The position numbers were made by a program, and so were the translations under genes. A stretch of 64,000 nucleotides of DNA, taken from positions 1,550,001 through 1,614,000 of the forward strand of contig CM026547.1 in NCBI GenBank assembly GCA_014905635.1. Reading direction: 5' to 3'. The notes under the pieces were generated by a model. It did not search any database, had not been told where the DNA came from, and was given only the letters and a program-made list of their open reading frames with translations. Shown here one piece after another: positions 113-64,000 of the stretch (the stretch's first letter is position 1; every line of letters begins with the position of its first letter). The stretch comes from Scenedesmus sp. PABB004. Lineage: Eukaryota.

Positions 113-1251
113 TCAGCTGCCAGCGCGGCTGGGCGGCAGCGGCACGGGGTGCTGCGCAAGGATGAGGCACAGCGGGATGCGCGCGACCAGGGTCGTGTCG
201 GGCGCCGCGCCCTGCGGGACGCGTGGGCGCAGGCGTGCGTGGGCGCGGGCTTCACAGCCGCTGCCGCAGGGCAGCGCGCGGCCGACCGCGTGCGCACGTG
301 CCTCTGCCGCCAGCGCGTCGAGCAGCGCCCGCCGGAACTCTGCCAGCGGGTCTGGCCGGTCGGGGTGGGTCTTCCGGCAGATGGCGTACGCGCTCCAGGA
401 CGACACGTAGCCGACCTGCGCGCGCAGCCGGGTCGATCGCCAGCACGCGCCGCGCCGGCCGCGCGCCTCGGCCGCCGCAGGCGTCGGGCCGCCGCTGCGG
501 CGCACCAGCTGCTCGGGCGTGAGCTCGGCAGGGCACTCGAGCTCGTGCAGCTCCACGCTGCCAAACTCGTCGGCGCTCGGCTCGAGGCCTGCGCGCGTGC
601 GCCGGCCGCTGGCTCGCGCGCGCGCCACGCCGCGCCGCGCCGCCGGCGGCGCGGAGCCGCAGCCGCCGCACCGCGGTACATGCGGTCGGCGCTGCGCTTG
701 CGCTCGTCCCAGAACGGCCCCAGGTCGTCGTAGATCCGCCGCAGCGCCGCGCCGCAGCCGGGCGCGGCGCGCGGCGCGGCGGGGACCTCGATGGCCGCCA
801 GGCCCAGCGGGATGGCCCACGCCGCGAAGACGCCGTGCGGCTTCAGCACGCGGCGGACCTCGCCGTAGAAGCGGCGCAGCTCGAGCCAGTGGAGCGCGGA
901 CGCCACGGTCACGGCGTCGGCGGCGCCGTCCGGCAGCGCCACGTCGTGCGCATCGCCGCGCGCGTACTCGACGTTGGCCGCCGGCGTCGCGTGGCGCAGC
1001 TGCGCCGCGTTGGCGTCGGTCGCGAGCACGCGGCGGAAGTGCGGCGCGAGCGCGGTCGCCGCCTGGCCGGACCCCGTCGCGACGTCGACGGCGAGGCCCC
1101 GGTGAGACGGCTCGGGCAGGCGGCTGAGGATGAGGTGGTACAGCTGGTCCGGGTAGCGGGGGCGGAACGTCGCGTACGCGGCCGCCGCCGCGCCGGAGCA
1201 GACGTCGTCGCTGTACGGCGCGGGCGCCGCCGCCGGTGCCGCCGCCGACAT
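113..1251 (-). CDS. SAM-dependent methyltransferase (Methyltransf_11 type), 4 exons
   Basis: Spliced translation MSAAAP...YATFRPRYPDQLY...LAVDVATGSGQA (motif I)...DAVTVASALHW...EVRRVLKPHGVFAAW; later exons GLEPSADEF, VGYVSSWSAY; last intron is GC-AG. Confidence 0.88.
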
Positions 1252-1722
1252 GCGCGCGCGTGCGCGCGGAGCGCGAGCTGGCCGATGGGGGGACGCCTGG
1301 CGCCTCGCTGGGCGGCGGCCGCCTCACTCCAGGGGGGTGGGGGCGCGGCTGGCTGGCTCGTCAGAGCTTCCAAAAGGCTGGGCGGCGGCAGGGCGGCGCT
1401 CTGAACGGCCCGGCGGCACGCGGCACGGCGTGCGGCGGGCCGGGCGGCCGCATGCGCGGCGGCGGCGCGGGGCAGCCTGGGCAGCTGACCGAATAGGGCG
1501 AGCTGAGCGAGACAGCAAGCGCAGCTGGGCGCGAGCTGAGCGGTCGCGGTTTGGCGGCGGCTGTCTGCTCTGCTGCCCCGGTCCGCCCAAAGAGCAGAGC
1601 GGCGCGCCCGCGCAGCAGCACCACCAGTTCCCAGGCGCGAGCTCAGCGCGTTCGGCGGGCTCGAAAAGAGAGCAGCACGCCGCTCCCGCGGCGCGCCGCC
1701 GCCGCTGCTGTCGCTGCCTCGC

Positions 1723-1782
1723 GCGGCCGCCGCTCGCGGCCGCCGCTCGCGGCCGCCGCTCGCGGCCGCCGCTCGCGGCCGC
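1723..1782. repeat. 13-bp tandem repeat (GCGGCCGCCGCTC) x ~4.6
   Basis: Read directly; lies about 60 bp upstream of the ATG at 1842, within a divergent intergenic region. Confidence 0.85.
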
Positions 1783-1841
1783 TGCCCGCACGCACCGGCC
1801 GCCGGCCGCGCGCAACCGCCGCTGCTGCGCGCTGCCCCGCA

Positions 1842-4081: not shown

Positions 4082-4538
4082 CTGTGCTGCCACACCCCTG
4101 GGGGGTGGCGGTAAAGGGTCGCGCGAGCGCGCACGCGGCGTCTCACGAGGGCCGCGTTGCACCGCGATTCTTCGCCCCGAGCAGGCGCCCAGCCCCTCCC
4201 CGTCAGCCGCCACCCCGTCCGGCCCACGCAGCCGCTCGCTACTAAACCGCTGGGCCGCGGCCCAGCACCCGCCCGAAAATGTACAAGCGCGCCAGGGCCC
4301 CTCATCCGCGCCGCGCGCGCGGTTGGGCCCGGGCGGCGCGGCTGCGCCGCCCCGTGGCGCGCTGCTGCTGCGCGGCGCGCCGCTCGCCGGCCCCAGGCAG
4401 CCGCCGCCTGGGCGCGACTCCCCGCGCGCGCGCCGGCGGCGGCGCGCGCCCAGCCGCCTGCTGGGCGCGCGCCGCGCCGGCGCCTGCTGCTACTGCTGCT
4501 GCTGCTGCTGCTGCTCGCGCGCCGGCTCGCGCGCCGGC

Positions 4539-5209: not shown

Positions 5210-5720
5210 GGCGCTGCTGCGGCACGGCGCCCTGGGCGAGCAGGGCCGGCAGCGGGCGCGGGCGAGGGGCGTGCGCAGGCTGGGGAGGGCGTCGGGGGAG
5301 CCGCGTAACCGATGAGATACCGGGCGGGCAGTGGCGGCGGCCAGGCGAGAGGGGCCTGGCAGCAGCAGCAGCAGCAGCACTCGCCAGGCCCTGAGCCCCG
5401 GCTGACAGAGTTCCTGGTGTCCTGGGCGCCGCCGCTGCTCGACCTCCACTCCCGCCGCCCTGCTGGTGGCTGTGCTCGCCGCCGTCGCACGCACACGCGC
5501 CGTCGCACGCCCGCAACCGCCGCTGCTGCACGCTGCCGAGCCCTTGCCTCCCTGCGGCAACAGCAGGCGCTCCAGGGACCAGCAGCGGCACCCGGCGGCC
5601 TCCAGCCTCAGCCCCGCGAATGGCGGGGGCGCCGCGCCGCCCCGGCGGCGGGGCCGCGCGCCGCGCCGCCGCGGCGTAGGCGAGCGCCCGCCCGCGCCGG
5701 GGCGCGGCAGCGCACGCGCG

Positions 5721-8337
5721 ATGCTGCAGCACGTGGTGCAGACCTTCCTCATTGCGGCGGTGCTGTCGCCGTTCAGCTACGCGGCGGGCCGCGCCGCGGC
5801 GGCGCTGCGCCTGCCGGCCATCACGGGCTACCTGGTCAGCGGCATCGTGTGCGGGCCCTACGCGCTGGGCATCCTCAGCCCCGAGAGCGTCGCCGACCTG
5901 TCCATCATCGAGGGCGCCTGCCTCGGCGTCATCGGCCTCGCCGCGGGCGCGGAGCTGCACCTCGGCGAGCTCAACCGCACCAAGAAGCAGGCGCGGCGGA
6001 CCGCCGGCGGCCGGCGGCCGGCGGGCGGGCGGCGGCCAGCGCGCGGCCGGCCAGCGCGCGGCGGGCCAGCGGGCGGCGGGCGGCGGAGCGGGCGGCGGAG
6101 CGGCGGGCGGCGCGGCGCCGCCGCGTCCCTGTGTCTGACGCGCGCCGCGCCGCGCTGCGCGGGCCGCGCCGCGGCGCGCAGGTCGTGTCGCTGACGGCGG
6201 GCATCTGCGGCCTGACCTGGGTGCTCTGCTACTATGCCTTCACCTGGAGCGCCTCGCTCACGCCCGTGCTGCCCGTGGTCAGCCGGGGGCAGCTCGCCGC
6301 GATCGCGAGCCTCGGCGGCACGCTCATGATGGCGCGCTCCCCCGCCTCGGCGGTGAGCCCCCGCGGCGGCCGCGGCGGCGGCCGGTGGCGGCACGCGCGC
6401 GCCCCGCGCGGCGCAGCGCTGCGTCGAGGCGCCGAGGCGCCGCGCGCGGCCGCAGATCGCGGTGCTGAAGGAGATGGACGCAAAGGGCCCGTTTGTGAGC
6501 CTGGTGATGGGCGTGGTGGTGCTGAAGGACGTCGTCGTCATCGTGCTCTTCGCGCTCAACATGGAGCTCGTGCCACTCGTGCGCGCCGCGGGGCGCGGCG
6601 GCGGAACCAGCGGCGGCGGAACCAGCGGCGCCAGCGGCGGAGCCAGCGGCGGACGCGGCGCCGGGCGCGGCCTGACCGCGCGCCCGCACGCGCCGGCCGT
6701 CGTCGCGCGCAGATCATCAACCACGACTCGTCGTCGTTCGGGCTCGCACACGTGCTGCTGCCCTTCCTCAGCGTCGGCGTGTCGCTCAGCGCGGGGCTGC
6801 TGGGCGGCTACGCCATGAGCCTCGCGCTGCAGCACCAGGCGCACGCAGCGGCCGCCTCGCTCGTCGCGGCCGCGCGGCTCGCGCCCGGCGTGCCGCACGC
6901 CGTCGTGCTGCTGAGGTGCGCGCCTGTGCGGGGCCAAGCGCGGCCGGGCCGCACGCGCGCCGCTGCGCGCCGGCGGCCGACGCGGCCGCTGCGCCGCCGG
7001 CGGGCTGGCGGGCCGGCGGCGCAGGTGCAAGCAGGCGCTGGTGCTGGGGCTGTCGACTGCGGTGTTCAGCGTGACGCGCGCGCTCGAGGCGGAGCCGCTG
7101 CTCGCCTGCGTGACGGCGGGCATGCTGCTGGCCAACCGGCGGTGCGCGGCGCGCCGCGGCGCGGCACGGCACGGCCGCCGCCGCCATCGCCGCCGCACCG
7201 ACGCCGCGGGCCCGCCGCGCCCCTGACAGGCCTGGCGGCGCGGGCGCCGAGGCGGCTCTGGAGGAGCCGGGCGCGCTGATCAACAGCATCATGGTCGTGA
7301 CAAACGTGGCCTTCTTTGGCCTCGCCGGCGCGTCGCTCAAGCTGGTGCGGCGCAGGCAGCCGCGGCGCGCGGGACAGTGCGCGCGGCGGGCCGCGCGCGG
7401 CCCCCCGACGCCGCGCATCGCGCCGCGCAGGCGGCCATCGCGGACAGCGTGTGGGTCGCACTCGTCGTGTTCCTCGCGCGCCTCGCGGCGATCGCGTGCG
7501 GCAGCTGGCTCGGCTGCCGCGTGGGGGGCGTCAAGTCCGAGGCCGCGGCGCGGGTGTTTTGGATGAGCATGATCACCCAGGCGCGGCGCGGCGCGGCGCG
7601 CGGGGTCCAGGAGGGGCCTGGCTCGGCGCCTCGAGCCCTGGGCCTGCCCGGGGGCCGGCGGCGGCGGCGGCGGCCGGTCAACCGCGCTGCCGCCCTCGCC
7701 ACCGCGCCGCCGCGCAGGCGGGCGTGGCGATGGGCCTCGCGCGCATCGCGGGCACCGCGTTCCCAGGGTGGGGCCCCGCGTTCCAGACGGTCTGCATGGC
7801 GGTCATCATGCTCAACATGCTCGTCGGCCCGCCCTGCTTCAGATCAGCCCTCATCCAGGCGCGCCGCGCTGCCAGGCGGCGCGCGCGGGGGCCCGCGCCG
7901 CCGCGGGCCGAGGCGCGGCGCGAGGGGCGGGCGCCGGCGCGCGCCGCCGACCGTGCCGACGCCGCGCCGCCGACGCCGCGCAGGTCGGCGAGGCGCGCGC
8001 GCACGTCCTGCCGTCGGCGGCGGCCGCGGGGGCCGCGGCGCAGGGCCTGCACCGCGACCTCTCAAACGCGCACGACGGCGACGTCGATGGCGTCGTCGGC
8101 AGGGCGGGCAGCAAGGGCAAGGGCGCGCGCGTGCACGCGGGCGCGGGCGGCCTGCACAGCACAGACAGCGGGCCGCTGCAGCTCGCCCGCACGCCGCCTG
8201 CTGGCAAGCTCGCGGCCAAGTCGTCGGAGGCCGGCGACGCGGCGGCAGACCACCCGGTGGTGGTGATCAGCAGCGGCGCGCTGCTGGAGGACCTCGGACG
8301 AGGACCTGAGCCGCGGCGCCGCGACAGCGACGACTGA
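5721..8337 (+). CDS. Monovalent cation/H+ antiporter (Na_H_Exchanger, CPA2-like), 9 exons
   Basis: LRLPAITGYLVSGIVCGPYALG, GLAAGAEL, ARSPASAIAVLKE, VVVLKDVVVIVLF, EPLLACVTAG, FFGLAGASL, TQAGVAMGL; many hydrophobic helices; 3 GC-AG introns. Confidence 0.88.
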
Positions 8338-8364
8338 CTGGCGGGCGGCGCTCGGTGACATGCC

Positions 8365-17658: not shown

Positions 17659-17694
<36 letters not shown>

Positions 17695-31562: not shown

Positions 31563-32173
31563 TCAGAAGCGCTTGACGCGCCGCCGCTCGGAGCGGCGCT
31601 CCGCGCGCTCCAGCTTCTTCAGCGTCGCCTCGTCGAGCTCGACGCCCGGCTGGTTGCGCCGCGCGCGCATGGGCAGGATGACCTTGGTGGCGAGCAGGTA
31701 GGCGGCGGTCGCGGGCACGACGGCGAGCACGTACCAGCCCCAGCGCGTGAACGCGGCGAGCACCTGGGCAAAGCCGGTCACGTAGAGGAGGTCAAAGTAG
31801 TAGGAGATCATGCCCTTCCCCAGGTCGCCGCCGCCGTCGACGAGCACGCCGTTCTGCCACACCGGGCGCGCGACCGCGGCGATCGAGACGAAGAACACGC
31901 CCTGCGCCGCGGCCGACCCGGCCGCCGCCGCCCACGCGACCCAGTCGGCGCTGCCGCCGCGCAGCCAGAGGCGGACCAGGACGTGGACCAGGGTGCACGC
32001 CAGCGCGTAGGAGCCCACCAGGCGCACCGTGCGCGCATTATCATCGGCGCGCTTCTTGGCGCCGCCGCCCGCCTGCGGCCAGGCGCGCGGGAGGGCCGCG
32101 CTGGGCGCTCCCACGCCACGGGCGGGAGGTCCGCCAAGCCACGGCCGCGCTGCGGGCAGCGCGCACGCACCAT
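31563..32173 (-). CDS. TMEM208: TMEM208/SND2 (DUF788) ER protein; first coding exon is the ATG alone
   Basis: ATG|GTGCGT intron (32170-32073) then AGGGAKKRADDN...LVDGGGDLG..MISYYFDLLYVT..QVLA..W..LAVVP; basic C-terminus KKLERAERR. Confidence 0.88.
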
Positions 32174-33637: not shown

Positions 33638-36600
33638 ATGGCGGGCCGCGGCTGGGCGGGTGATGAGCCGGTGGCGGTGATGAACGCGGCGCTGCAGGCG
33701 TTTGGCGCCGAGCCAGCGGCGGCGGCGCCGGCGCGCACGGAGCCCGACGCGCCGCTGTTCATGCCCGCGGGCGCGTTCCGCGGCGCCAAGCAGGGCTACT
33801 ACTTCGGCACCGGCCCCCACGGCACGGGGTGCGTGTGTGGGGGAGGGCAGCGGCGCGCGCGGCGCGAGGGGCGCGCGCCGCGAGCCGTGCGAGCCGCGCG
33901 GCGCGGCAGCAGCGCGGCGCCCGACCGCCGGCGCGCCACGCCGCGCCCTGCCCGCAGCTACTACCGCGACGCGGCGCAGCCCCTGGACGAGGCGGAGCTC
34001 GCGGCGGCGGCGCGGCGGCACGACCCCGCGGCGCTGCTGCGCGAGGCGGAGGCGCAGGCGGACGCGGCGGAGGTGCAGCTGCTGGACGAAAGGTCGCTGC
34101 GCAAGATGCTCAACGCCTTCGACAAGAAGGTCAGACTGGCAGGCACCAGCGGCAGGCACCGCGGCAGGCACCGCGGCGGCGGCCGCTGCTGCGGGGCAGC
34201 GGCTGCGCCGACCGCTCTGGCGGCCGCGTCACGCCCGCCCCGCCGCTCCGCCGCCGCGCCGCGCCCGCGGCGCGCAGGCCAAGGAGAACCTCGAGCTGCG
34301 CATGAAGTACGCGGACGAGCCGATGAAGTTCCTTGACAACGAGGTCGACCTCATGTCCCTCATCCGCAGCCTCGCGCAGGTCGGGGCCGACCCCAACACC
34401 CTCTACCCGCTGCTGCTCGACAGCGCCGCGGTGCCGACGCTCGCGGGGCTGCTGAGCCACGACAACACCGACATCGCGGTCGAGGTCATGGACCTGCTGC
34501 AGGAGCTCACAGACGCGGGTGCGCCGCGCCGCGCCGCGCCGCGCCGGCGCGGCGACGGCGCTTGCGCGACGGCGGCGGCGCTGCCGGCCCGCCGGCGCCG
34601 CGCGCGCCCGCGCCGCCCGGCGTGCACGCGCGGCGGGGACGCGCGCGACGCGCGCGCTGCGGCGCGCCGCAGACGAGGAGGAGGACAACCAGGAGGTCGC
34701 GGGGCAGCTGGTCGACGCGCTGGTCGAGGCAAACGCGCTGGAGCTGCTCGTCGAGCGCATGGCGCGGCTCTCCGAGGGCAACGACGAGGAGGCCGGCGCG
34801 GTGCACCACGCGCTGGCGGTCATTGAGCACGCGCTGGAGGTGAGCGCCGGGCCCCGGGCAGACGCGGGGCCCTGCGTGCGGGGGCGCGCCCGCTCGGCGG
34901 CAGGGCGGCGGACGCGCGGCGCCGGCGCGGCCCGCGCCCGCCGACCCGCGCGCCCGCCCCGCCGCGCCGCGCAGCTGCGTCCGGCGCTGGCGGAGGTGCT
35001 GCTGGCGCGCACCAAGCTGCTCAAGTGGCTGCTCGCCCGCATCCGCGTGCGCGGCAGCGACAGCAACAAGCAGTACGCGAGCGAGATCCTGGCCATCCTC
35101 ATGCAGGCACGCCCCGCACTGCTGCTCGCGCCGCAGCCCGTGTGTGCGCCGTGGGCTCTCGCGCGCCGCCGCCGTGCTGCGCCGCCCACGCCGCGGCCGC
35201 CGCCGCCCGCGCGCGCGCGCGCCGCAGGGGCACGAGGCCAACCAGCGCGTGCTGGGCGCGGCCAACGGCATCGACGCGCTGCTCGTCTGCCTCGCGGGCT
35301 TCAAGTCGCGGGAGCCGGCCGACGCGGAGGAGGCTGAGACGATGGAGAACCTCTTTGACGCGCTCTGCTCCTGCCTGCTGCTGCCGGCCAACCGGTGCGC
35401 GCGCGGCGCGGCGCGGCAGCGCGGCGGCGGTCGTCGTTTGCGGCGCGCCCGGCGCGCGCGGGCGGCGGCGGCGCGGCGAGGCGTGCCGCGCAGCGCCGAC
35501 GCCCGCCGCCCGCCCGGCCGGCCGGCCGCCGCCTGGCAGCGCGTCGTTTGTGTCGTGCGAGGGCGTGGAGCTGATGCACCTGCTGCTCAAGGGCCGCAAG
35601 TCGAGCCGCTACGGCGCGCTCAAGGCGCTCGACTTTGCGACCACGCGGTGCGCTGCCCCGGGGGGGGGGGGGGGGGGGGCTGGGCGCGGCCCCCGCCGCG
35701 CAGGGCCTGGGGGCGGCGCCCGGCTCGGGGCCTGGGCCGGCGCTGCCCCGCCGCTGCGGCCGGGCCGACACAACCGCCCGCGCTGCGCCGCGCCGGCCCC
35801 GCCGCGGCAGCTCGCCGCCCGCGTGCGACCGGCTGGTGGAGGTGGGCGGGCTGGCGCAGCTGTTTGCCGTGTTTATGGCCCGCTCCAAGATCAAGGTCAG
35901 GAGCGGCGGCCGCGAGCGCAGCGACCGCGACGTCGCGCGCGAGGTGGAGGAGCGGTGCGTGAGCATCATAAGCAACCTCTTCCAGGGCGTGACCAAGGCC
36001 AGCCGGCGGGAGCGCCTCGCCGCCAAGTTTGTGGAGGCCGAGTTTGAAAAGGTCGACCGGCTCATGGAGATATGCTTCAGGTGGGTCAACCCCGCAGCAG
36101 CGGCGTCGGCTGCCCGGCGGGCGGCGTGCGGCACTCGCCGGCGGCGCGCGCGGCGCCGGCAGGCGCCCCCTCCCTCAGCACGCACACGCACGCACGCACA
36201 CACACACGCCCGCGCGCGCAGGTACGAGGCGGGCGTGCGCGCGTGCGAGGCGCGGCTCGCGCGCGCGGCGCTGGACGCGGAGGAGGAGGTCGACGGCGAC
36301 GAGCTGCTGCTGGAGCGCATGGACGCGGGGCTCTTCACGCTGCAGAGCGCCATGGTCATCGCCGCCGCGCTCTGGGCCACCGGCGACGCGGGGCTGCGCA
36401 AGCGCCTGCTCGCCTGCCTGCACCAGCGCGGGCAGAGCCTGGGCATGGTCCGGTGCGGCCGGGCGGCGCGCGAGCCCCGCACGCGCCGTGGGCCCCGGCG
36501 CTGCGCTGCCGGCGCCGCCGTCCGCCGCCACGCGCCGCGCTGCCGCGCCTGCACGGGCGCCACCCGCCCGCTGCCGTCACTGCCCCCCCCCCCCCCACAC

Positions 36601-47671: not shown

Positions 47672-49265
47672 ATGGCGCTCGCGACCCGGCGCGCGACGAT
47701 CGCCACTCCCTCGCGCGCGTTCGCCGTCCCCAGGACCATGGTGCGACGCGGAGCGGCCGCTTCCCGTCGTCGCGCCGGGCGGGGGGCGGCGCGGGCCCGC
47801 GGGCGCCTGTACTCGGCTCGATCTGCTGCTCCGCACGCATGCGCCCGCCCCGCCCGCCCAGGGCGCCTCCGCCTCCACCGCCAAGCGCGGCGGGCCCGCC
47901 AAGGCCGCGGCCGTGGAGCCGGCCACGCTGAACATCGCTGAGAACGTCACCCAGCTCATCGGTGCGCGCGCGGCGGCGGGCGACTGCTGCCGCCGCCGCC
48001 CGGCGCCGCGCCGCCGACCCGGCGCGCCGCGGCCGGCCGGCCGCAGGCAACACGCCCATGGTGTACCTCAACCGCGTGACCGAGGGCTGCGGCGGCAAGG
48101 TGGCCGCGAAGCTGGAGATCATGGAGCCCTGCTGCTCCGTCAAGGACAGGCGCGCGGCGGCGGCGGCAGCAGCGGCGCCGCGCCCGCGCGGCGCCCGCCG
48201 CGGCGCGGCGTGCGTGCAGCAGCCGACGCGGCGGCCCCGCTCGCGCCCCCGCGCGCGCAGGATTGGCTACAGCATGATCGACTCTGCCGAGAAGGAGGGC
48301 AAGATCACGCCGGGCAAGGTGCGGCGCAACGCGCGGGGCTGCCGCCGCCGCGCAGCAGCGGCGGCGGCGGCGGCGGCGGTGGCGGCGGCGAGCGGGCGCG
48401 AGAGCCGCCGCGCCGCCCGCCCGCCGCCGCGCCGCCAGACGACGCTGGTGGAGCCGACGAGCGGCAACACGGGCATCGGCCTCGCCTTCATCGCCGCGGC
48501 GCGGGGGTACAAGCTCGTGCTGACCATGCCCGCGTCGATGAGCCTCGAGCGCCGCATCCTGCTGCGCGCGTTTGGCGCGGAGCTGGTGCTCACCGACCCC
48601 GCCAAGGGCATGAAGGTGCGGCGGCGGCGGCGGCCGCGCACCGGCGGCGGCGCACCGGCGCGTGCGCCCGCGCGTGCGCCCGCGCGTGCGCCCGCGCGCT
48701 CACGCGCCCGCGCGCGCTCGCAGGGCGCCGTGGCCAAGGCGCAGGAGATCGCGGCCAACACGCCCGACTCGTTCATCCTGCAGCAGTTTGAGAACCCCAA
48801 CAACCCGCGCGTCCACTACGAGACCACCGGCCCGGGTGCGCGCCGCGGCGGGGCGGCCCCCGCGCGCCTCGCGCCGCCCCCGGGGCTGCTGGGGCTCCCC
48901 CCGCCGCGCCGGCCGCCGACCGCGCCGCCGCCGCCGCCGCCGCGGCGCAGAGATCTGGCGCGCGACGCAGGGCAAGGTCGACGTGCTCATCAGCGGCGTG
49001 GGCACGGGCGGCACCATCACCGGCACGGGCCGCTTCCTCAAGGAGAAGAACCCCAACGTCAAGGTGACCCCCGCACAGCAGCGCGATGCGCCCAGCGCTG
49101 ACAGCGCTGCCGGCGCTGCCGGCGCTGCCGGCGCTGCCCGCGCCGGCCCGCGCGGCCGGCCGCGCAGCAGGCGGCTGAGCCCCGCCCCCGTCGCGCCGCC
49201 GGGCCGCGCAGCTCGTCGCGGTGGAGCCGTCCGAGTCGCCCGTGCTGTCGGGCGGCAAGCCGGGG

Positions 49266-49297
<32 letters not shown>

Positions 49298-49877
49298 TGT
49301 GCCGGGCGTGCTGGACACCAAGATCATCGACGAGATCATCCAGGTGGGTGGCACACCACGGCCGCACACGCCACGTGCACACACACACACACACACCACA
49401 CCACGTGCCCGCGCGCCCCGTGGCGCTGCGCCCCCGCGCGCGGCTCCCAGCGCTGAACCCCCGCCGGCGCGCCGCGCCGCGCCGCCACCGCCGCCTGGCT
49501 CGTCCAGGTGTCGAGCGACGCCGCCGTCGACATGGCGCGCCGCCTCGCGACCGAGGAGGGGCTGCTCACCGGCATCAGCTCCGGCGCCGCGGTCGTGGCC
49601 GCCATCGAGGCATGCGCGCGGCGCGGCGCGAGTCGCGCGCGCGCTGCGCTGCGCGCGCCGGACGGGCGCCGCGCGCCGGGCGGCGCGCGCCGCGCCGCGC
49701 CGCGCCGCTCAGGGCGGTGCTGCTGCTCCGCGCGGCGGCGCGCAGGTCGCGAAGCGCCCCGAGTTCAAGGACAAGACCATCGCGGTCGTGCTGCCCTCGT
49801 TTGGTGAGCGCTACCTCTCCAGCGTGCTCTTCCAGTCCATCCGCGACGAGGCGGAGCGCATGACCTTTGAGGCGTGA
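47672..49877 (+). CDS. OASTL: Cysteine synthase / O-acetylserine(thiol)lyase, organellar, 10 exons
   Basis: Transit peptide; [26 protein letters not shown] (PLP lysine); [52 protein letters not shown]. Confidence 0.97.
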
Positions 49878-50112: not shown

Positions 50113-51567
50113 TCACTGCTCCTCCTCCTCGTCGTCCATCGCGAACGAGAGCTTGGCTTTCTGCTTCACCTTGGCCGCGCCGCCGCCGCCGCCGCCTGCT
50201 GCGGCGCCTGCTGCCTGCTTGTTGGCCGACGCGCCGCCGTCCCGCTGCCTGTCCGGCTGCTGCTTCTGGCCGCCGCCACTGCCGCCGCCGCCGCCGGGCT
50301 TGGCCTTTTTGAAGACGTGCTTGCGCTCACGGATGTTCTGCAGCTCCAGCGCCGACGCGCGGTCCAGCGCGGCGCGCAGCGTCTGCGGCCCGGCGCGCGC
50401 GCACGGCGTGGGCGCGCCTGCCCGCAGCGTGTGCGCGCGCGCCTGCCCGCCCGCGCGCGCGCCGCGCCGCGCCGCGCCGCGCCGCGCCTGGTCGTCCGGC
50501 TCGAGCTTCACCGCGCGCTCGTAGGCCTCCTTGGCCTCGCTGTAGAGCTGCAGGCCCATGTACGCGGCGCCGCAGCGCGCGTGCGCCTTGACCCAGCCCG
50601 GCCGCAGCTTCGCCGCGGCGCGCGCGTCGGCGAGCGCGGCGTCGAAGCGCCCCAGGTTGGCGGCTGCGGCGGAGCGGTTGCTGAAGTACACTGCGTCCCT
50701 GCGGCGGACGCCAACGGCGGCGGCCAGCGGTGAGCGGTCAGCAGGCGGCGCGGCCGGGCAGCGCCGCGCGGGCGGGCGGGAGGGGCGCCGCACCCCGGGT
50801 CGAGCTCGACGCAGCGGTCAAAGTGCTTCAGCGCGGCCTCAAAGTCCTTGGCGGCAAAGGCCTTGTTGCCGAGCTCCTTCTCTCGCCCCGCCTCGACCTG
50901 CCGCGCGCGGCGCGGCGCGGCGCGGCGCGGCGCGGCGTGGGCGCCGCTGCCGCGCGCGGCGCCGGCCGTTGCCGCTGCGCGCGGCGGCGCCGGCCGCCGC
51001 TGCCGCCCGTGCCGGCGCGCCGCCGGCCGCGCCTTGGTGAGCGCCTCTGTGCCCAGCTGCTCCGCGAGCTCTGGGTTCTCCTCGAGCGCGCGGCGGATCG
51101 CCTCCTGCTCGTCCGCGGCGTCGTCGTCGGCGTCGTCCTGGTCGTCGGCGGCGCGGCGCCGCGCCTCGCCCGGCTGCACGACCACGGGCTCGTCCTCGTC
51201 GGCGGCCGCGTGCGTGGGCAGCATGTGGGCGTAGGGCGCGAGGAACTTGGGCAGCTGGCGCGTGAAGTTGAGCGCCGTGTCCTTCACGCGCTTCTTGCCC
51301 GCCGTGCCGCCGCCCGTGCCGCCCGTGCCTGCGCGCGGCGCGGCGGGCGCGGCGGCCTCAGCGCCGGCGGCGGCGGCCTCAGCGCCGGCGGCGGGGCGCG
51401 GCGGGGCGCGGGCGCCGCGCAGCAGCGAACGCGCCTTTGGTGAAGCCGCTGTGCTCCTCGCGGTCCTGCGGGGCCCAGGAGCCGAACTGGTCATCGAACT
51501 CGTGCGTCTGCTTGCGCTTGCCGCGCCGCTCCCCGCCGCCGCGGTCGCCGCCGCCGCCGCCGCGCAT
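50113..51567 (-). CDS. Three-TPR (carboxylate-clamp-type) co-chaperone-like protein with DUF4604-like flanks, 5 exons
   Basis: EKELGNKAF..KDFEAALKHF; AVYFSNRSAA; PGWVKAHARCGAA; flanks LNFTRQLPKFL and C-terminal KLSFAMDDEEE. Confidence 0.82.
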
Positions 51568-52049: not shown

Positions 52050-53355
52050 ATGGGCTCCGTCAAGCTGTGCGTTGCGGCGGGCGCCTGGGCGGGCGCTGGG
52101 GCGGGCGCCCGGGGCCGCGGGGGCCGCGGCGGGGCCGGGGCGCGCGTGGCGGGCGGGCGCGCCGCCCCGGGGCGCGCCCCGGCGCGCCCGGGGCCCGCGG
52201 GCGGCGGGGGCGGCGCCCGGGCGGCGGATCAGCGGCCGCCCGCAAGATCGCGGCGCCTCGGGCATCGCTGCGGCGCGCCGGGACGCCGCGGCGCGGCCGA
52301 TGCGCCCTCGCGCCCGCCCGCCCGCCTCACGCGCGCCGCCCGCGACCCCGCGCGCGCAGGTACGTGGGTAACATCCCCTGGTCCACCAACGTGGACGACC
52401 TGCGCGAGCTCTTCGGCCAGTATGGCGCCGTGGAGGACGCCTTCATCCCCCAGGTGCGGCGCCGGCGCGCCCGGCCGCGCAGCCCGCGCCCCGGGCCGCC
52501 CCGCGCGCGGTCCTCCGGCGCGCGCGCGACCAGCCGAGGCCTCACCGGCCCCCGCCGCGCCGCGCCGGCGCCGCGCCGCGCAGGATCGCGAGTCCGGCCG
52601 CCCGCGCGGCTTTGCCTTCGTGACCATGTCCAACGGCTCCGAGCAGGCCATCCAGGCCCTCAACGAGACCGACTTCCAGGCGAGCCCCGCCGCCCGCGGG
52701 CTGGCTGCGGGCCGCGGCGCCGGGCGGCCGGACGGATGCACGCGAGCTCCGGCACGCCCGTCCGCGCGCCCCGGCGCCCGCGCCGCGGCGCAGCCGCGCG
52801 TGCGGGCGCGGCGCGCGCCGTCCGAGGCCCTGCGCTCACTCCCCCGCCGCCGCTGCCACCGCCGCGCCGCGCAGGGCCGCACCATCCGCGTGAACGAGGC
52901 GCAGCCCCCGGGCTCTGGCGGTGGTGGCTTCCGCCGTGGCGGTGGGTACGGCGGTGGCTTCGGCGGCGGCGGCGGCGGCTACGGCGGTGGGTTCTTAACG
53001 CTGCGGCTGGCGCGAGCTCGCGCCAGCCGGGGCGCGAGGGCAGGGACGCCCACCCGCCCCCCGCGCCCGCAGGTGGCGGCTACGGTGGTGGCGGTGGCTA
53101 CAACGGCGGCGGCGGCGGCTACGGCGGTGGCGACGGTGCGCGGCACGCGCGGCCGGCCCGGGGCGCGGCGCGGCGGGGCGGGGCGCTGCTGGAAGCGCGC
53201 GCGCGCGCGCGCGTGCTCCCTCCCGCCCGCGCGCTCGTGCCGACCCCCTGCCGCCCGCCCCTCTCTCCCCGCGCGCGCCCCCCTGCGCCGCAGGTGGCTA
53301 CGGCGGCGGCGGCTACGGCGGCGGCGGCCGTGGCGGCTATGGCGGCGGCTACTAG
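52050..53355 (+). CDS. Glycine-rich RNA-binding protein (RRM plus GGY tail), 6 exons
   Basis: KL|YVGNIPW (RNP2); DRESGRPRGFAFVTM (RNP1); GRTIRVNEA; GGGYGGG repeats ending GGY*. Confidence 0.93.
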
Positions 53356-54675: not shown

Positions 54676-56620
54676 ATGGAGCGGCAGCTGCAGCGCGGCC
54701 GCGCCGCGAAGCGCGCTGTCGAGCAGGCCGCGGCAAGCAAGAAGACCTGCACATGCTGGCCGAGATGGAGGAGCAGGCGCGGGCAGGCAGAGGGGCCGCG
54801 CGCCGAGCTGGCCGCGCCGCCTGCCCACCCCCGCCGCCGCCGCCGCGGCGCAGGCGCGCGCCCCGCCCAGCCCGGCACGCGACCTCGTGCCCAAGCGCCT
54901 GAAGCCCGCGCCTGCCCTCGCGCCCATTCCTGTGCACGACGACGACGACGAGGGCCCAGCCCTGACGGCGCGGCCCGACGGCTACGCGCGGTGCGGGCGG
55001 TCGGGCGCGCGCGAGCGCCGAGTGTCGGGAGTCGGCCCCGCCGTCGCCACGGCCGCGCCCCTGCCCACGCCTCCCCGCCATCGCGCGCGCCGCAGGCTGC
55101 AGCAGCTCGACAGCGACGATGAGCCCGCGGTGCGCCCTCCGTGCCCCGCCGCGCAATGCCGCCCGCGCGCCGCGCCCGCGCGCGCCCCGCCATGCGTCGC
55201 GTGTCGCGCGGGGCGGGGGGCCAGGCGGGATGGGGCCGGGCGGGCGGCTCACCGTTCTGCACCGCGCGGCGGCGACCGCTGCCCGTTGCGACCGCCGCTG
55301 CTGCCGCCACAGGAGGTCGACGGCGACGACGAGGACGACAAGGAGGGCCAGGGCGACCAGCGGCACAACTGGCTGTTCTGCCGCCACCAGGGCTGCCGCG
55401 CCACTGCCGTGTTTGGGCCCCCCGGCCGCGCCCCGGAGGTTTGCGCGGCGCACAAGGTGCGCGCCGCGCGCAGCCCTCGCCGGCGCGCCGCGCCTGAGCG
55501 CGCGCCCGCGCGCGCGGCCTCTGCGCGACGTCGCGGGGTCGTCGGCCACCACCACGCACCCTCGCGCGCGCCGCGCTGCCCGCAGGAGACCCACATGCGG
55601 CGGCGCAGGGAGGCGTGCGGGCTGCCGGGCTGCGACAGCGACAAGCTGGCCACGCACCGCGTCGACGACGGCACCGGCGCGCCGCTCATGGGCCCTGAGC
55701 ACCTGCGCTGCCCCGACTGCGCCAAGTCGGCGGCGCAGCGCGACGAGAAGCTTGTGGTCAGCGCCTCGGCCGCCGCGCGGCTCTGCCGCCACGAGGGCTG
55801 CCGCGCCGCTGCCGCGTTTGGGCCCCCCGGCCAGCTGAAGGCGCCGCCGGCCGGGGGCGGCACGCCGCAGCCGGCGACGCCGCGCATGCCTGCGCTGCAG
55901 GAGCCAGGCCGAGGCAGCGCTGAAGCGGCGGCCAACGGGCAGGGCGGCCCCCCGCCGCGCGGCGCGGGCGGCGCCAGCAGCGCCAGCAACGAGAGCCAGA
56001 AGCGAGCTGCCTCGACTAGCGGCAAGCCGGGGCTTGTCATCTCCCTGCGGCGCCCTGCCGGCGGCGCCAGCGGCCAGCAGGCCGACCCTCACCACGCCGG
56101 CGTGCTCGAGCGGCTCGGCGGCCCCCCGGGCGGCGGCAGCGGCAGTGGCGGCATCAGCCGCGGCGACCGCGGCGACCAGCGGCCGCCCGCGCCCCGCGCC
56201 GGCGCTGGCGGCCGCGCGGGCCACGCCCGCGCGCCCGCGCTCGGCGCCGCGGCCGCGCGGGGGTCGGGGCCCGCGCCCGGCAGCGCCTGGCTCAGCCGTG
56301 GCAGCGGCGGCTCGGCCGGGCCCCCGCCGGGTGCCGGCGGCCGCGGCGCGGGCGCCAACCAGCAGCAGCGGCAGCAGATGCAGCAGGCGCAGCACCAGCA
56401 GCTGCTGTACCAGCAGCAGCTGCTGTACCAGCAGCAGCTGCTGTACCAGCAGCAGCTGCTGTACCAGCAGCAGCTGCTGTACCAGCAGCAGCTGCTGTAC
56501 CAGCAGCAGCTGCTGTACCAGCAGCAGCAGATGCAGCAGGCGCAGCACCAGCAGATGCAGCAGATGATGCAGCAGCAGCAGTGGGGCGACCTGGGGGCGT
56601 GGCAGCCGCCGCACCAATGA
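54676..56620 (+). CDS. Hypothetical protein with EsV-1-7-like Cys/His repeats and a Gln-rich tail; 5' end uncertain; apparent frameshift near 54734
   Basis: Exons bounded by splice sites; LFCRHQGCRATAVFGPPGRAPEVCAAHK, ACGLPGC...CPDC, LCRHEGCRAAAAFGPPG; (LLYQQQ)7. Confidence 0.55.
56402..56527 (+). repeat. Perfect 18-bp coding tandem repeat CTGCTGTACCAGCAGCAG x7
   Basis: Read directly; flanked on both sides by a ~30-bp direct repeat encoding QQMQQAQHQQ. Confidence 0.95.
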
Positions 56621-57093
56621 CCTGCTGCCGCGTGCGACTGCCGCCCCGCCCCGCCTGGGCTGGGGGCCCATGATTGGCGGCGGCGCGCGGCGCTGCTGGC
56701 GTGGTGGCGCAGGGCGGCGGCGGGCACGTGCTTGTGCGGCTGGGCGGCCCGCGCAAACGCGGTGTGGTCGCCCAAGGTCCGAAGTTTCTCTTGACCGAGC
56801 ATCAGGCATCGACCCTCCTCGCAAGTAACCGATCCAGCGCGAGCCGACACGCGGGCGGCGGGGCGCAGCGGCCCCTGGGTTCAGCGCGGCAGCGGCACCC
56901 GCAGCCCCGCGACCCCCTCCCACCACCGCCGCCAGCCCACAGCCGCGCGCTCTGCGCAGACCAGCAGCAGACGTGGCGCGAGCCAGCGCTGCCCGCGCGC
57001 TGCACGCCGCCCGTCGGCGCTGCCGCCGCCGATCTTGACCGCCTGCGCGCCGTCTCGACGTCACGTCGGCAGCTGACCGTGATAGCCACGCGC

Positions 57094-58993
57094 ATGCAGC
57101 CCACGCTGGCCCCACACCGCGGCGCGGGCGTGTCGCAGCAGATGCGCTACAGGCCGCTCCGCGCCTGCGGCCCGGGCGCCGCCGTGGTGCCTCGATCGCG
57201 ATTGCAACGGTCGCGCAGGGTCCTCCACACGCCTCGCGCGAGCCTGCAGGTGCGCGGCGGCGCCGGCGCGCGGGCGGCAGCAGCGCGGCGCCGCAGGCGG
57301 GCGGCATGGGCGAGGGGCATGGCCAACACCCAGCTCGGGGCCCCAGGAGCTGAGCACCGACGTGGCCATCATCGGCGGCGGCCCGGCGGCGCACACGGCC
57401 GCGACGTATCTCGCGCGCGCGGAGCTCGCGCCGGTGCTGTTTGAAGGCTGGATGGCGAACGGCATCGCGCCCGGCGGCCAGCTCACGACCACGACGTACA
57501 TCGAAAACTGTGAGCGCCGCCGGGACCGCCGCGGACGGCGCGCGTGCGCGGCGGCCAGCGGCGCTCACCACTCACCGCCCGCCGCCGCGCCGCCGCGCCG
57601 CCGCGTTCCCGCAGTCCCCGGCTTCCCGGAGCCCATCCTCGGGGCGGACCTCTGCGACCGCTTCCGGGCACAGAGCGTCGTGCACGGCACGCGCGTGTTC
57701 ACCGAGACGGTCGAGAAGCTGGAGCTCAGCGGCGGCGGCCCGTTCAAGCTCTGGACGGACAGCAAGCTCGTGACCGCGCGCGCCGTGATCATCGCGACCG
57801 GCGCGGCGGCCAAGCGGCTGCGCATCCCCGGCGCCGACGAGGGCGAGGGCGGGTTCTGGAACAGGGGCATCAGCGCGTGCGCCGTCTGCGACGGCTCCAG
57901 CCCGCTCTTCAGGCGTGGCGCCCGCCGCGGCGCGCGCGCCGCCGCCGCCGCCGTCGACGGCGCCGCCGCCGCCACGCCGCCGCGCCGCCGCCGACGGCGC
58001 TGACGGCCGCCGCTGCGGCGGCGCGCAGGAACAAGCCCGTCGGCGTCGTGGGCGGCGGCGACGCGGCGATGGAGGAGGCCTGCTTCCTCGCGCGCTACGC
58101 GAGCACCGTGTACGTCATCCACCGCTTCGACTACCTCGAGGCCAGCAAGGTCATGGCCAAGCGCGCGATGGCAAACCCCAAGATCCAGGCGCGCCGCCCG
58201 CGCCGCCGCGCGGCCGCGCGAGGGGGGGGGGGCGTGGCGGCCCGCGGCGGCGGCGGCGCCCGCGGCGAGCCGCCCGGCGAGCGCCGCGCGCGCCGCCGCC
58301 GCCGCGCGCGCGCGCAGTTCCTGTGGCAGCGCGAGGTGGTTGAGGCGTACGGCGTGGAGGGCGACGACGTGCTGGGCGGCGTGGTGCTGCGCGACCCTGC
58401 CGGCGCGCTGTCGCGGCTGCCGCTGTCGGGGCTGTTCTTCGCGATCGGGCACTCCCCCGCGACCGCCTTCCTCGGCGGGCAGCTTGAGCTGGATGAGTAC
58501 GGCTACGTCATCACAGCGCCCGACAGGTGAGCGAGCGCCCGGGCGGCTCAACACGTCGCAGCAGGGCCAGGGCACCGCACAACCGCGCGCCAAGCGACGG
58601 CGCCGCCGCCGGCGGCGCCTCTCCACCGCGCCGCTGCGCCCGCCGCCGCCACACGCGCCCGCCCCGCCTCCCCTCTCCTCACCAGCACCGCCACGAGCGT
58701 GCCGGGCGTCTTTGCCGCGGGCGACGTGCAGGACCGCAAGTGGCGCCAGGCGATCACCGCCGCGGGCTCGGGTGCGCGCGCCGGCCGCGCGGCGGCGGCA
58801 GGGCCGGGCGGGCAGGCGGCCCAAGCGCGCGCGCTGGCAGGGCTCGCAGGCACGCCCGCCGCCGCCGCCGCCGGCCGGCGCCGCAGGCTGCATGGCCGCG
58901 CTCGAGGCGGAGCGGTTCCTGGCAGAGTCGGAGAGCTCCGGCTCTGGCGCCGGCACCAACGGCAAGCAGCAGCCCGTCGCGACGGCGTCGTGA
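57094..58993 (+). CDS. NTR: Low-molecular-weight thioredoxin reductase (NTRA/B-like) with transit-peptide-like N-terminus, 7 exons
   Basis: [45 protein letters not shown]; active site [52 protein letters not shown]. Confidence 0.95.
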
Positions 58994-59738: not shown

Positions 59739-62700
59739 ATGGGCGTGCCCGCCTTCTACCGCTGGCTGTCCGACCGCTACCCCAAGATCGTGCGGGATGT
59801 GATCGAGGAGCAGCAGCAGTGGGTGGACGGCGAGGAGGTGCCGCTCGACACGTCCAAGCCCAACCCAAACGGCGAGGAGTTCGACAACCTCTACCTGGTG
59901 CGCCGCCCGCCCGCCCGCCCGCCCGCCCGCCGCCGCCCGCCCGCCCCGCTGCTCGCCCCCTCCGCCCTGCCGCTGCGGCGGCGCCGGCGGCGGCGCGCGC
60001 TGCCGCCGCGGGCGGTCCGGCGCCGGCGCGCCCGCGAGCTGCCGCCGGCGCGCCGCTTGCAGGACATGAACGGCATCATCCACCCCTGCTTCCACCCCGA
60101 GGACAGGGTGCGCGCGGCGCGCCCTCCCCTGCCCAGCGCCGCGCGGCGCTGCGCGCGGCCGCACGGCCGCGCACGTGGGCGCGGGCGCCGGCCGCTGCCA
60201 GCCACGCCGACCGCTGCCGGCTGCTGCCGACCGCCGCGCCGCCGCGGCGCGCGCCGCCGCGCAGCCCGCGCCGACGAGCGAGGTGGAGGTCTTCCAGAAC
60301 ATCTTTGACTACATCGACCGCCTTTTTGCCATCGTGCGCCCCCGCCGCCTGCTCTACCTGGCCATCGGTGCGCGCCAGCAGCAGCAGGCGCCACGCCGGC
60401 AGGCGGAGCGGCCGCGGCGGCGGCGGCGGCAGCAGCGGCGGCGGCGGCTGGAGCAGCGGCGGCGGACGCGGGCGCAGCAGGCGCGGGCGTGGCAGCGCCC
60501 GGCGCCGACGCGGCCGCCCGCCCGCCGCCCGCGCCCGCGCCCGCCCCGCAGACGGCACCGCGCCGCGCGCCAAGATGAACCAGCAGCGCTCGCGGCGCTT
60601 CCGCGCGGCGCAGGACCTGGAGGAGAAGGCGCGCGCGCCGCTGCACGCCGCTGCACGCCGCCGCTGCACGCCGCCGCCGCGCCGGCCGCGCGCGCCGGCC
60701 CCGCGCCGGCCCCGCGCGCCGGCCCGCGCGCCTGCCCACCGCGCCGCGCCGCGCCCGCCGGGACGCGCAGGAGGCGGAGGAGGAGCGGCTGCGCGCGGAG
60801 TTTGAGAAGCAGGGCATCCACGTGCCGGTCAAGGGGCGCAGCGAGATTTTTGACTCCAATACCATCACGCCCGGCACGCCCTTCATGCACCGCCTCTCCA
60901 TCGCGCTGCAGTATTTCGTGCACCTCCGCCTCAACGGCGACCCCGGCTGGCGCGACATCGAGGCGCGGCGCGGCTGCGCGTCGCGGGGCCGCGCCGCCGC
61001 CGCCGCCGCCGCTGCCGCCGCCGCCCCGGCCGCCGCGCTGGCGCGCGCCCTCACCCCGCTCGCTCGCGCGGCCAGGTCATCCTGAGCGACGCCAACGTGC
61101 CGGGCGAGGGCGAGCACAAGGCGATGGCGTTTGTGCGCGAGCAGCGCGGGCAGCCCGGGTGGAACCCCAACACGCGGCACGTGATGTACGGCCTTGACGC
61201 CGACCTCATCATGCTCGCCCTCGCCACGCACGAGCCACACTTCACCATCCTGCGCGAGGCGCGCCACGCGGCCGCGCGCGGGGCGCCAGCGCGCGCGGCG
61301 CAGGGCTGGCGCGGCGAGCCGGGCGCGCCCCGCCCCGCGCCGCGCCTGCGCCCGCGCCGCCGCCCTCCGACGCCCGCCCCGCCCCGCGCCGCCGCGCCGC
61401 CGCGCCGCCGCGCCGCCCCGCGCCCCGCGCCCCGCGCCCCGCGCGCCGCGCAGGTGGTGTTCCAGGGCAAGCCGCCGCCCGCGGACAACCGGCCCGACGT
61501 CGCGGCGATGCTCGCGGCCGCGGGCGCCGCGGGCGGCGGCGGCGCCGCGGAGGAGCCGCGCGTCGAGGTCGCGCGCAAGCCGTTCCAGTTCCTGAGCGTC
61601 GTGCTGCTGCGCGAGTACCTGGCGCTCGAGTTCCGCATCCCCCACCTGCCCTTCCCCTTTGACCGGGAGCGCATCCTCGACGACTTTGTCTTCCTCTGCT
61701 TCTTCGTCGGCAACGACTTCCTGCCCCACATGCCCACGCTCGAGATCCGCGAGGCGCGCGCCGCGCCGCTGACGCCGCGCCGCCGCGCCCGCGCCCGCGC
61801 CGCCGCGCGGCCCCGCGCCGCTGTGCGGATCGCGCGCCGACTCCGCGCGCCGACGCCGTGCCCCCGTGCCGCGTCGGTTGCCGCCACCACGCAGGGCGCG
61901 ATCGACCTGATGATGTCGGTGTACAAGCAGATGCTGCCCAGCCTCGGCGGCTACCTCACGCGCGGCGCGCACGTGCGCCGCGCCGCGCGCGCGCCCTGCC
62001 GCGTCGCGCGCCTCGCCCCTGGCCCCCGGCCCGCCCGCCCCGGCCGACGCGCCGCCCGCCCCGCGCGTGTGTGTGCTGCCAGGTTGACCTGGCCAAGGTG
62101 GAGCGCTTCATCCAGCGCATCGGCGCCTACGAGGACACGATCTTCCAGAAGCGCATGCGCCTCCTCGCACGGCACGCGCGCACCCGCCACACCCGCCGCC
62201 ACCGCGCGTGCCCGGGCGGGGGCCCCGCCTCGGCGCGCGCGGCCGCCCACGCGCGCCGCCGCTCGCCGCCGCCGCGCAGGCAGCGCGACCGGCTGAAGCA
62301 CCAGCAGGCCGCCGACCGCGCGCGCCGCTCCAAGGCCAAGCGCAAGTACATCGGCGCCGACGGCGCGGCGCCGAGCGCGGAGGTCGCGGACCGCCTCGCG
62401 CCCGCGGCGGCGGCGGCCTGATGGCGGTCAAAGACCTCGCCCGCCACAAGCTCGACTTCTCAGGTGCGGCGCCAGCCCTGCGCCGCGCGCCCGTGTGCGC
62501 AGCGTGACCGCCCACGCGGGGGTGCCCTGGGGCGGCGCCAGCCCCACCGCGCGGCGCGAGCCCCGCCCACCGTGCGCCGCGCGCTGCGCTCGCGCCGCAC
62601 AGGCTCCAAGGGCCCGCACGCGCCGGGCCACCTGCGCTTCACGGACGAGGGCCAGGCCGTCGCCGGCAGCATCGGCGGCGTCGGCGCGGCGCCGCCGGGG

Positions 62701-64000
62701 CTGCGGCCCTCGGCCGCCGCGAGCAACAAGTCGGCCGCGCAGCTCCTGCGCGAGCGACTCAAGGGCGGCGGCAGCGGCACCGCTGGCGCCGCCGGCGGCG
62801 ACGCCAAGCCCGCCGCCGACGGCCCGGAGGTCAAGCAGGAGCCGGCCGACGGCGGCGACGGGGCGGCGCCGCCCGCGGCGCGGCGGCGGTCAAGCCCGAG
62901 CCCGGCGCCGCCGCCGAGAACGGCGGCGGCGGCGCGGCCAACGGCGCCGCCGCCGGCGCGGGCTCCGGGTCGGACGACGCCGCCACGCCCGGTGAGCCGC
63001 TGCCCAAGCGCGCCAAGGTCGACACGCCGCCGCCGGCGGACGCGGCCGACCGCGAGATGGCCACCCCCGGCGCCGAGGCGGACGCCGCGGCGGCGGGCGC
63101 GGCCGACATCGCCGCCGCCGGCGGCGGGAGGCCGGCGCGGGCGTGTCCGACGCGGAGGTGCTGGCGGTCGTGGCCGGCGGCGACCTGGTCGACGGCGAGG
63201 AGGAGGAGGCGGAGGAGGAGGACGAGGCGGACGACGACGACGACGACGAGGAGCCGCCCGTGGCCGACGCGGCGGCGCTGAAGCGCGTCGGGGCGCCGCC
63301 GCTGCCGCTCGGGCCCGGCGGCGCGCCGCTCGCGGCGGCGGACGCCGAGGCGATGGCCGAGTTCAAGGAGCACATTGAGGACCTGCTTAAGGGCCGCAGC
63401 GACCGGCTGGAGGAGAGCGCAGAGGCGGAGCAGAAGATCCGGCTCGGCGAGGCCGGCTGGAAGGCGCGGTGAGGGCCCAGGGGCGGGGCCGACCGGAGTG
63501 TGGCGGCGCCGGCGGCTGCCGCAAGCTCTCCCCTCCCCCCCTTCCACCCTCTGCACTCACCCACCCACCCACCCACCCACCCACCCACCCACCCACCCAC
63601 CCACCCACCCACGCAGGTACTACCAGGAGAAGATGGGCGCCGCGCCGGAGGAGCAGGGCCCCATCATCGCGGCTATCGTGCGCGCGTACGTGGAGGGGCT
63701 GTGCTGGGTCATGGCCTACTACTACGAGGGCGTCGCGAGCTGGGAGTGGTGCGCGGCCGGCCGCCGCCGCGCCCCCGCGCCGCGCCGCGCACTCGGCGGC
63801 CGCGCGCGACGCCGCTCGCCAGCCGCACTCGCACCCTTCAAACCCTCGCAAGCCTCTCAACCCCTAAACCTGAACCCTGACCCCCCACCTAAAACCTGCC
63901 GCCGCCGCCAGGTTTTACCCCTACCACTACGCCCCCTTTGCGAGCGACCTGACCGGCCTCGCCTCGCTCGACATCAAGTTCTCCATCGGGCGGCCCTTCA
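59739..64000 (+). CDS. XRN: 5'-3' exoribonuclease of the XRN2/3/4 (Rat1-type) family, runs off the window; three apparent 1-nt frameshifts in the linker (~62400, ~62875, ~63125)
   Basis: [122 protein letters not shown]. Confidence 0.96.
63558..63612. repeat. (CACC)n tetranucleotide microsatellite, ~13-14 units, directly before an XRN intron acceptor
   Basis: Read directly. Confidence 0.9.

Follow-up and report, generated by a model that had tools for sequence, protein, structure and literature searches.

A high share of GC-AG introns in a very G+C-rich stretch of the Scenedesmus sp. PABB004 genome

In a 64-kb stretch of the genome of the green alga Scenedesmus sp. PABB004 (contig CM026547.1, positions 1,550,001 to 1,614,000; this whole stretch is called the window below), we consider it highly probable that about a quarter of the ordinary U2-type introns begin with GC and end with AG, probably through T-to-C change at the second intron position (+2) under G+C pressure, at donors where the exon side compensates for the mismatch. 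Sixteen of these introns are supported independently of splice signals, 12 by spliced alignment to orthologues and four by the tiling of Pfam profiles or by alignment to solved proteins, and their borders, fixed without the use of splice signals, begin with GC and end with AG as those of U2-type GC-AG introns do. The phenomenon is real but of a kind already published for haptophytes and pelagophytes, to which a green alga is added here as a further case. An initial annotation, made from the letters of the window, had counted a GC donor at about 30 of about 128 junctions and had ascribed this to a 5' splice-site recognition that has become relaxed or re-tuned, together with extreme G+C pressure; its observation is confirmed and its interpretation is partly supported.

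There is a practical side to this, as gene finders and read aligners tuned to GT donors would mis-build a large share of the genes in such genomes. A GT-only model damages all four of the window genes that were tested with it, and the public protein of one of them, a TPR gene, still appears to carry an unspliced GC-AG intron.

The window and the placement of introns by homology

The G+C content of the window is 79% overall and 77-81% in every 4-kb bin, and the genome as a whole is reported as 39.8 Mb with 78.5% G+C (PMC12571836). Codon-position periodicity and segmentation by codon log-odds reveal short exons and introns of about 80-250 nucleotides (nt) on both strands. When 138 coding segments were compared with Pfam, the profile coordinates tiled from exon to exon, identifying a cation/H+ exchanger, a deoxynucleoside kinase, ASF1, an RFC subunit, TMEM208, a CTNNBL-like protein, a pyridoxal-phosphate enzyme, a TPR protein, an RRM protein, a pyridine-nucleotide oxidoreductase and XRN. 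Three public proteins with the source name Scenedesmus sp. PABB004 (P0052, P0274 and P0271) are 100% identical to models of window genes spliced with GT and GC donors; the closest named orthologues come from Tetradesmus obliquus and other Sphaeropleales.

Introns were placed with a splice-aware protein-to-DNA aligner written for this analysis (BLOSUM62, affine gaps, three intron phases, settable donor and acceptor dinucleotides), which can be run with GT-AG only, with GT-AG and one further donor pair, or with any pair at both ends (unconstrained). Spliced alignment to orthologues of four genes, encoding cysteine synthase, the cation/H+ exchanger, the TPR protein and XRN, gave 12 GC-AG introns among 30. 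For cysteine synthase (eight introns, two GC-AG) the identical protein scores 1594 with GT and GC donors, the same as in the unconstrained mode, and 67 units less with GT only; against four orthologues the GT-only model costs 53-66 units. The corresponding scores for the exchanger (eight introns, three GC-AG) are 2600 with GT and GC, 2600 unconstrained and 2368 with GT only, those with its T. obliquus orthologue are 1683, 1683 and 1519, and the third match to an identical protein reaches 1885 both with GT and GC donors and unconstrained. With orthologues as queries, GT and GC donors together recover 82-100% of the gain that is made when all constraints are lifted. GT-only alignments drop 53-232 score units across these comparisons and delete or insert conserved residues. 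If GC is swapped for each of 14 other dinucleotides, its gain is still the largest in nine of nine ortholog tests, the runner-up usually being CG.

For 13 introns we examined the class of alternative borders that yield the same mRNA. Each class holds four to seven placements; a GC-AG placement is found in all 13 and a GT-AG placement in none. The 3' ends of segments delimited by coding potential, with no splice model, fall at G|GTGCG or at NAG|GCGCG, and the latter ends coincide with the donors of the initial annotation. As far as sequence comparison can tell, placement of the GC-AG borders by chance is excluded.

The 16 supported introns

In the exchanger gene (+ strand), the intron at 5991-6181 (CAG|GCGCGG, 191 nt) is placed by P0274, which is 100% identical, and by P0277, P0275, P0285, P0296 and P0292. 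Five of these six references also place the introns at 7581-7717 (137 nt), where P0275 skips an exon, and at 7859-7983 (125 nt), which P0296 puts elsewhere; all three introns change the frame. The two GC-AG introns of cysteine synthase (+ strand) lie at 48150-48260, with 111 nt in phase 2, in frame and stop-free, splitting an Arg codon that is conserved in P0052, P0057 and P0072, and at 49610-49745 (GAG|GCATGC, 136 nt, frame-changing), placed by ortholog spliced alignment. In the TPR gene on the - strand (source name HOP2), three of the four introns are GC-AG, exactly as had been proposed: 51329-51434 (106 nt, frame-changing, with an in-frame stop inside; P0271 and P0272), 50898-51032 (135 nt, in frame and stop-free; P0271, P0272 and P0273) and 50383-50487 (105 nt, in frame and stop-free), for which the support comes from P0272 and P0273.

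Six reference proteins were aligned to the XRN gene (+ strand), which has 10 placeable introns with four GC donors among them. The initial annotation had counted five of 12. The intron at 60963-61075 (113 nt, frame-changing) is found with all six references and lies where the XRN_N profile passes from positions 121-179 to 179-240; that at 61754-61894 (141 nt, in frame) is likewise found with all six, the XRN_M profile running from 2-33 to 33-58 across it. At 60629-60770 (142 nt, frame-changing) the donor is the same in five of six references and the acceptor varies from 60770 to 60782. The least secure of the 16 is 61259-61453 (195 nt, in frame), with exact borders in two of six references and other GC donors nearby in the remaining four; the match to the XRN_N profile stops together with the exon, and the ab initio model described below agrees.

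Four further introns lie in genes for which the support comes from Pfam or from solved proteins. In the CTNNBL-like gene (35107-35227, + strand, CAG|GCACGC, 121 nt, frame-changing), position 214 of profile PF08216 is the last upstream residue and the match resumes at 217 after two unaligned residues of the next exon; there is no GT within 24 nt downstream of this donor. The pyridine-nucleotide oxidoreductase is an NADPH thioredoxin reductase and has two such introns on the + strand, both seen in alignments to 1vdc_A. At 57913-58028 (116 nt, phase 2, frame-changing) the upstream exon is matched to 61-157 right through its last residue and the next exon from 159, with the split codon corresponding to 158. 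At 58189-58317 (129 nt, in frame) a query translated through the intron aligns with its residues 1-53 to 159-211 and with 97-164 to 212-280, leaving 43 residues without a match that coincide exactly with the intron. The same kind of read-through query against 2ki2_A places an intron inside the RRM domain of a glycine-rich RNA-binding-like gene (52680-52874, + strand, 195 nt, in frame): residue 68 is the last of the exon and 69 the first after the intron, the second stretch being weak when taken alone.

The initial annotation had named 15 donors on the + strand, and GC is present at every one of them. Support without splice signals is available for 13: nine through orthologues (5991, 7581, 7859, 48150, 49610, 60629, 60963, 61259 and 61754), 35107 through Pfam tiling, and 57913, 58189 and, weakly, 52680 through solved proteins. 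For the donor at 29166 support comes solely from the ab initio model, and 62172 is not verified, since conservation is poor in this part of XRN and the six references place the borders differently there. This part, 62083-63468 (+), is a long stretch of low complexity that corresponds to XRN_M profile positions 85-178. It had also been said that the exons before nearly all of these donors end in AG, which holds for 14 of the 15; 62172 is preceded by ACG. A GC donor of the RFC gene at 27756 has support from one side only, and the 25-residue RFC exon has no match among the solved proteins.

Anatomy of the GC donors

All verified GC donors are preceded by NAG. The triplets before the 12 donors of the four ortholog-verified genes are CAG (five), GAG (four) and AAG (three), and the four further supported donors are also preceded by CAG. 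AG stands before 12 of 12 GC donors and before 5 of 18 GT donors (Fisher p = 8.7e-5), which bears out the proposal that GC donors depend on the exon side. Put the other way round, 12 of the 17 verified donors that follow AG are GC, and none of the 13 that do not follow AG.

In other respects the two classes are alike. Positions +3 to +6 read GCGC or GCGG in 10 of 12 GC and 14 of 18 GT donors of the four genes, the acceptor is CAG in 30 of 30 introns, and the consensus CAG|G is common to both; on the intron side the consensus of both classes is G-C/T-G-C-G-C/G, with GCGCAG|G at the acceptor. The median intron length in the filtered ab initio set (defined below) is 121 nt for GC and 126 nt for GT introns. 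Phase 0 accounts for 20 of 27 GC and 41 of 78 GT donors in that set, an excess which fits an AG supplied by the preferred codons CAG, AAG and GAG. Judged by their sequence, the GC donors are ordinary compensated GC-AG donors, and nothing suggests a separate intron class.

Ab initio parse and share in the window

The parser combines codon log-odds, frame-consistent introns and position weight matrices obtained by Viterbi training; it was trained with GT donors only and then with one more donor class, and the list of the initial annotation was not shown to it. With GC as the added class the training settles at 101 GT and 43 GC introns and reaches a total score of 6129, compared with 5611 for GT only, and this is the highest of 15 alternatives. 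After zero-length exons are merged, the raw result is a set of 26 gene models with 140 introns on both strands of 113-63999, comprising 100 GT and 40 GC. If both flanking exons must reach at least 10 bits and the intron must measure 60-400 nt, 78 GT and 27 GC introns are left (27/105), and if GC donors must in addition follow AG, 78 and 23 (23/101, 23%). The 30 of 128 counted in the initial annotation amount to the same share as this strict count. Such a share is far above the value of about 1% that is typical elsewhere, with 16 of the introns independently supported.

The parser recovers all 15 donors named in the initial annotation, together with every border that orthologues place in cysteine synthase, in the TPR gene and in the first ten introns of XRN. 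A naive parse with flat penalties was rejected, as it overused GC and merged genes.

Explanation and alternatives

How could so many donors have come to begin with GC? The explanation that we favour starts from a strong pressure towards G and C, which would act on intron position +2 as well; changes from T to C there would become fixed where the remaining contacts suffice, namely A at -2 and G at -1 in the exon together with G at +1 and G at +5, and the GC-AG share would rise about twentyfold above the level of about 1% typical of plants. Extreme G+C pressure is a plausible driver, by analogy with other algae, and the need for AG on the exon side may cap the share. A relaxed or re-tuned recognition of the splice site is not needed for this, because the GC donors have the appearance of ordinary GC-AG donors with compensation. 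That the introns are spliced as placed is something we infer from genomic and protein sequence.

Several points weigh against this reading. Both the direction of the change, from T to C, and G+C pressure as its cause are inferred. The share comes from one 64-kb window and so is no genome-wide rate, and the four genes tested with orthologues were picked partly for their many claimed GC donors, so that the 40% (12/30) found in them is biased upward. The parser over-calls GC donors in regions of low complexity: two GC introns in the exchanger gene are false according to P0274 and P0277, and four in XRN are unverifiable. Every other dinucleotide that was offered to the parser also lifted its score, by 34-398 bits (to 5645-6009), compared with 518 for GC; we suspect that these gains come from versions of the same sites displaced by one to three bases. 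As no alternative failed to gain, the swap of dinucleotides in the parse provides no independent noise floor, and the case is based on homology. Finally, seven of the 16 keep the reading frame and contain no stop; for them homology alone cannot separate an intron from a lineage-specific insertion, and the public protein P0271 of the TPR gene contains 35 residues rich in Ala, Arg and Gly that equal 50383-50487 read through.

A first alternative is that the splicing machinery itself has changed, for instance at the 5' end of U1, in the ACAGAGA box of U6, in U1-C or in PRP8, and now reads C at +2 as well as T. The tolerance for C at this position is indeed very high when the exon ends in AG, as seen from the 12 GC and five GT donors after AG among the verified introns and the 23 GC and 28 GT donors after AG in the filtered ab initio set. 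However, the absence of GC from all 13 verified donors that lack AG fits an unchanged machinery that needs compensation, and the haptophyte Emiliania huxleyi has a higher share which is ascribed to G+C content, not to the machinery, in the accessible text (PMC4028052). The window contributes nothing on the small nuclear RNAs (snRNAs), as it holds no snRNA genes and an Rfam scan of it matched no family. On balance we regard a changed machinery as unlikely.

Only slightly less likely, in our view, is that many of the in-frame segments are translated as lineage-specific insertions rich in Ala, Arg and Gly, or are often retained, in which case the true GC-AG share would be nearer 10-15%. This idea is favoured by the seven lengths divisible by three without an in-frame stop, by the inclusion of 50383-50487 in P0271, and by the aligner, which always prefers an intron to a gap of 35-65 residues. 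Its scope is limited by the nine of 16 supported introns whose length is not divisible by three; these shift the frame, which leaves no room for read-through, and their removal is therefore needed to keep the orthologous frame. As for the other seven, their codon log-odds are negative throughout, from -0.41 to -0.78 per codon, where exons have +0.61; over all 16 introns the range is -0.41 to -1.10. The segments fall between adjacent residues of solved folds (211|212 in 1vdc and 68|69 in 2ki2), transcript-derived orthologues lack them, and P0052, P0274 and P0271 leave out six other GC-AG segments. The 35 residues of P0271 are absent from P0272, a transcript-derived orthologue, and from P0273, a Bryopsis protein, and 50383-50487, which has the log-odds of -0.41 per codon, looks like an intron that either was missed when the public gene model was built or is retained. 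An in-frame stop, counted in the upstream frame, occurs inside only two of the 16. With 79% G+C, an intron seldom breaks the reading frame, and both gene prediction and any surveillance of retained introns that relies on stop codons are therefore weakened.

It could also be argued that the junctions are misplaced, the real donors being GT nearby and the GC donors artefacts of reconstruction in a sequence where GC makes up 21% of all dinucleotides and is nearly always at hand. Artefacts of this kind do occur: in cysteine synthase the naive parse gave up two true GT donors for GC ones, and the trained parse made the false calls in the exchanger gene. Yet for the 16 introns homology allows only borders that are equivalent to one another, GT-AG is missing from all 13 of the classes of such borders that were examined, GT-only alignments lose score and damage conserved residues as described, and the coordinates of solved proteins run on contiguously across GC-AG borders. 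By these sequence comparisons misplacement is refuted at the 16 sites and survives only for calls made by the parser alone; as an account of the whole it is very improbable.

U12-type introns have a long conserved donor box. The GC-AG introns lack it, they match the GT introns in positions +3 to +6, in length (medians of 121 and 126 nt) and in the acceptor CAG|G, and no point in favour of a U12-type or other non-conventional class was found, which leaves such a separate class with next to no probability. Minor introns and minor snRNAs are, moreover, reported to be absent from Chlorophyta (PMC11347168).

Comparison with known systems

The introns of the window resemble the U2-type GC-AG introns of plants and animals in having GC at +1 and +2, AG at the 3' end, an NAG on the exon side that compensates for the mismatch at +2, and otherwise the same signals as the GT introns of the same genome. 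What sets them apart is their number: the average across 121 plant genomes is reported as 1.2%, as opposed to roughly 23-29% in the window (PMC6310983).

The nearest parallel is E. huxleyi, for which 56-60% GC donors are reported and ascribed to a G+C content of 65% (PMC4028052). According to the same source, 56% of 241 manually mapped junctions are GC-AG, and 13 junctions (nine GC, three GT and one GA) were checked by reverse-transcription PCR (RT-PCR) and Sanger sequencing. The two cases share a very high G+C content in an algal genome, a large proportion of GC-AG introns whose acceptors are the canonical AG, and damage to gene predictions made with tools that expect GT (PMC4028052). The haptophyte belongs to another supergroup, however, and reaches 56-60% GC donors at 65% G+C, whereas the window has about a quarter at 79%; the share is thus not set by G+C content alone, E. 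huxleyi standing higher at the lower G+C content. Its junctions were moreover checked by RT-PCR and expressed sequence tags, whereas those of the window are known from genomic and protein sequence alone.

A raised GC-AG share that goes with high G+C content is also reported for the pelagophytes Aureococcus anophagefferens and Pelagomonas calceolata, with about 14-17% predicted GC-AG introns ascribed to high G+C, as opposed to 0.32% in a relative of lower G+C content (bioRxiv 10.1101/2024.10.30.620910). These are stramenopiles with 0.2-0.9 introns per gene, whereas the green alga has 140 introns in 26 models. In the titles and the beginnings of abstracts of the open-access literature we found no report of a raised GC-AG share in a green alga, and no remark on donor usage in Scenedesmus sp. 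PABB004. Eight of the verified GC-AG introns can already be deduced from its public proteins P0052, P0274 and P0271.

Species related to this alga are reported to have a G+C content near 57% (PMC12571836). Together with the alga at 79% they would make a convenient pair for measuring how base composition erodes a core splicing signal, and would also show which compensating contacts permit the erosion, although the principle is already published for other algae. A scan of metagenomes for related loci returned 80, none of them from a close relative; 68 consist of one uninterrupted match and 12 of split matches, the latter at 30-45% G+C.

We speculate, with some doubt, that +2 is nearly neutral whenever the exon ends in AG, a setting in which GC is the commoner donor among the verified introns, and that the public gene set under-calls such introns because most of them lack stops and many keep the frame. 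If this held genome-wide and went along with changes in U1, U6 or PRP8, the alga would add a third independent lineage to haptophytes and pelagophytes, the green lineage would have its first case of a GT rule that is giving way, and its sister species of lower G+C content would allow a direct evolutionary comparison. The chance that this is so seems low.

Further observations

Among 48 short XRN fragments of other organisms, four (P0147, P0155, P0156 and P0165) have Ala after ...ILRE, three of them Ala-Arg, as expected from a GCGCG donor that is read through; this hints at relatives that share the GC donor. A read-through test based on XRN fragments was dropped as confounded, Val also being the native next residue in XRN.

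Short simple repeats lie just 5' of three acceptors on the + strand, near 63588-63617, 36193-36222 and 29716-29745, with the units CCCA, CA and GTGCTGTG-like. They may stand in for the pyrimidine tract in this G+C-rich setting.

In two genes an intron directly follows an ATG (ATG|GTGCG), at 47738-47861 (+) and at 32073-32173 (-). The public cysteine synthase protein P0052 begins with the Met of such a border, and in the model of TMEM208 the first exon consists of the start codon only. Two exons at 55313-55840 (+), in a gene otherwise unassigned to a family, match the cysteine-rich EsV-1-7 motif (Pfam PF19114, E = 2.2e-6 and 0.031), which takes its name from a protein of a brown-algal virus.

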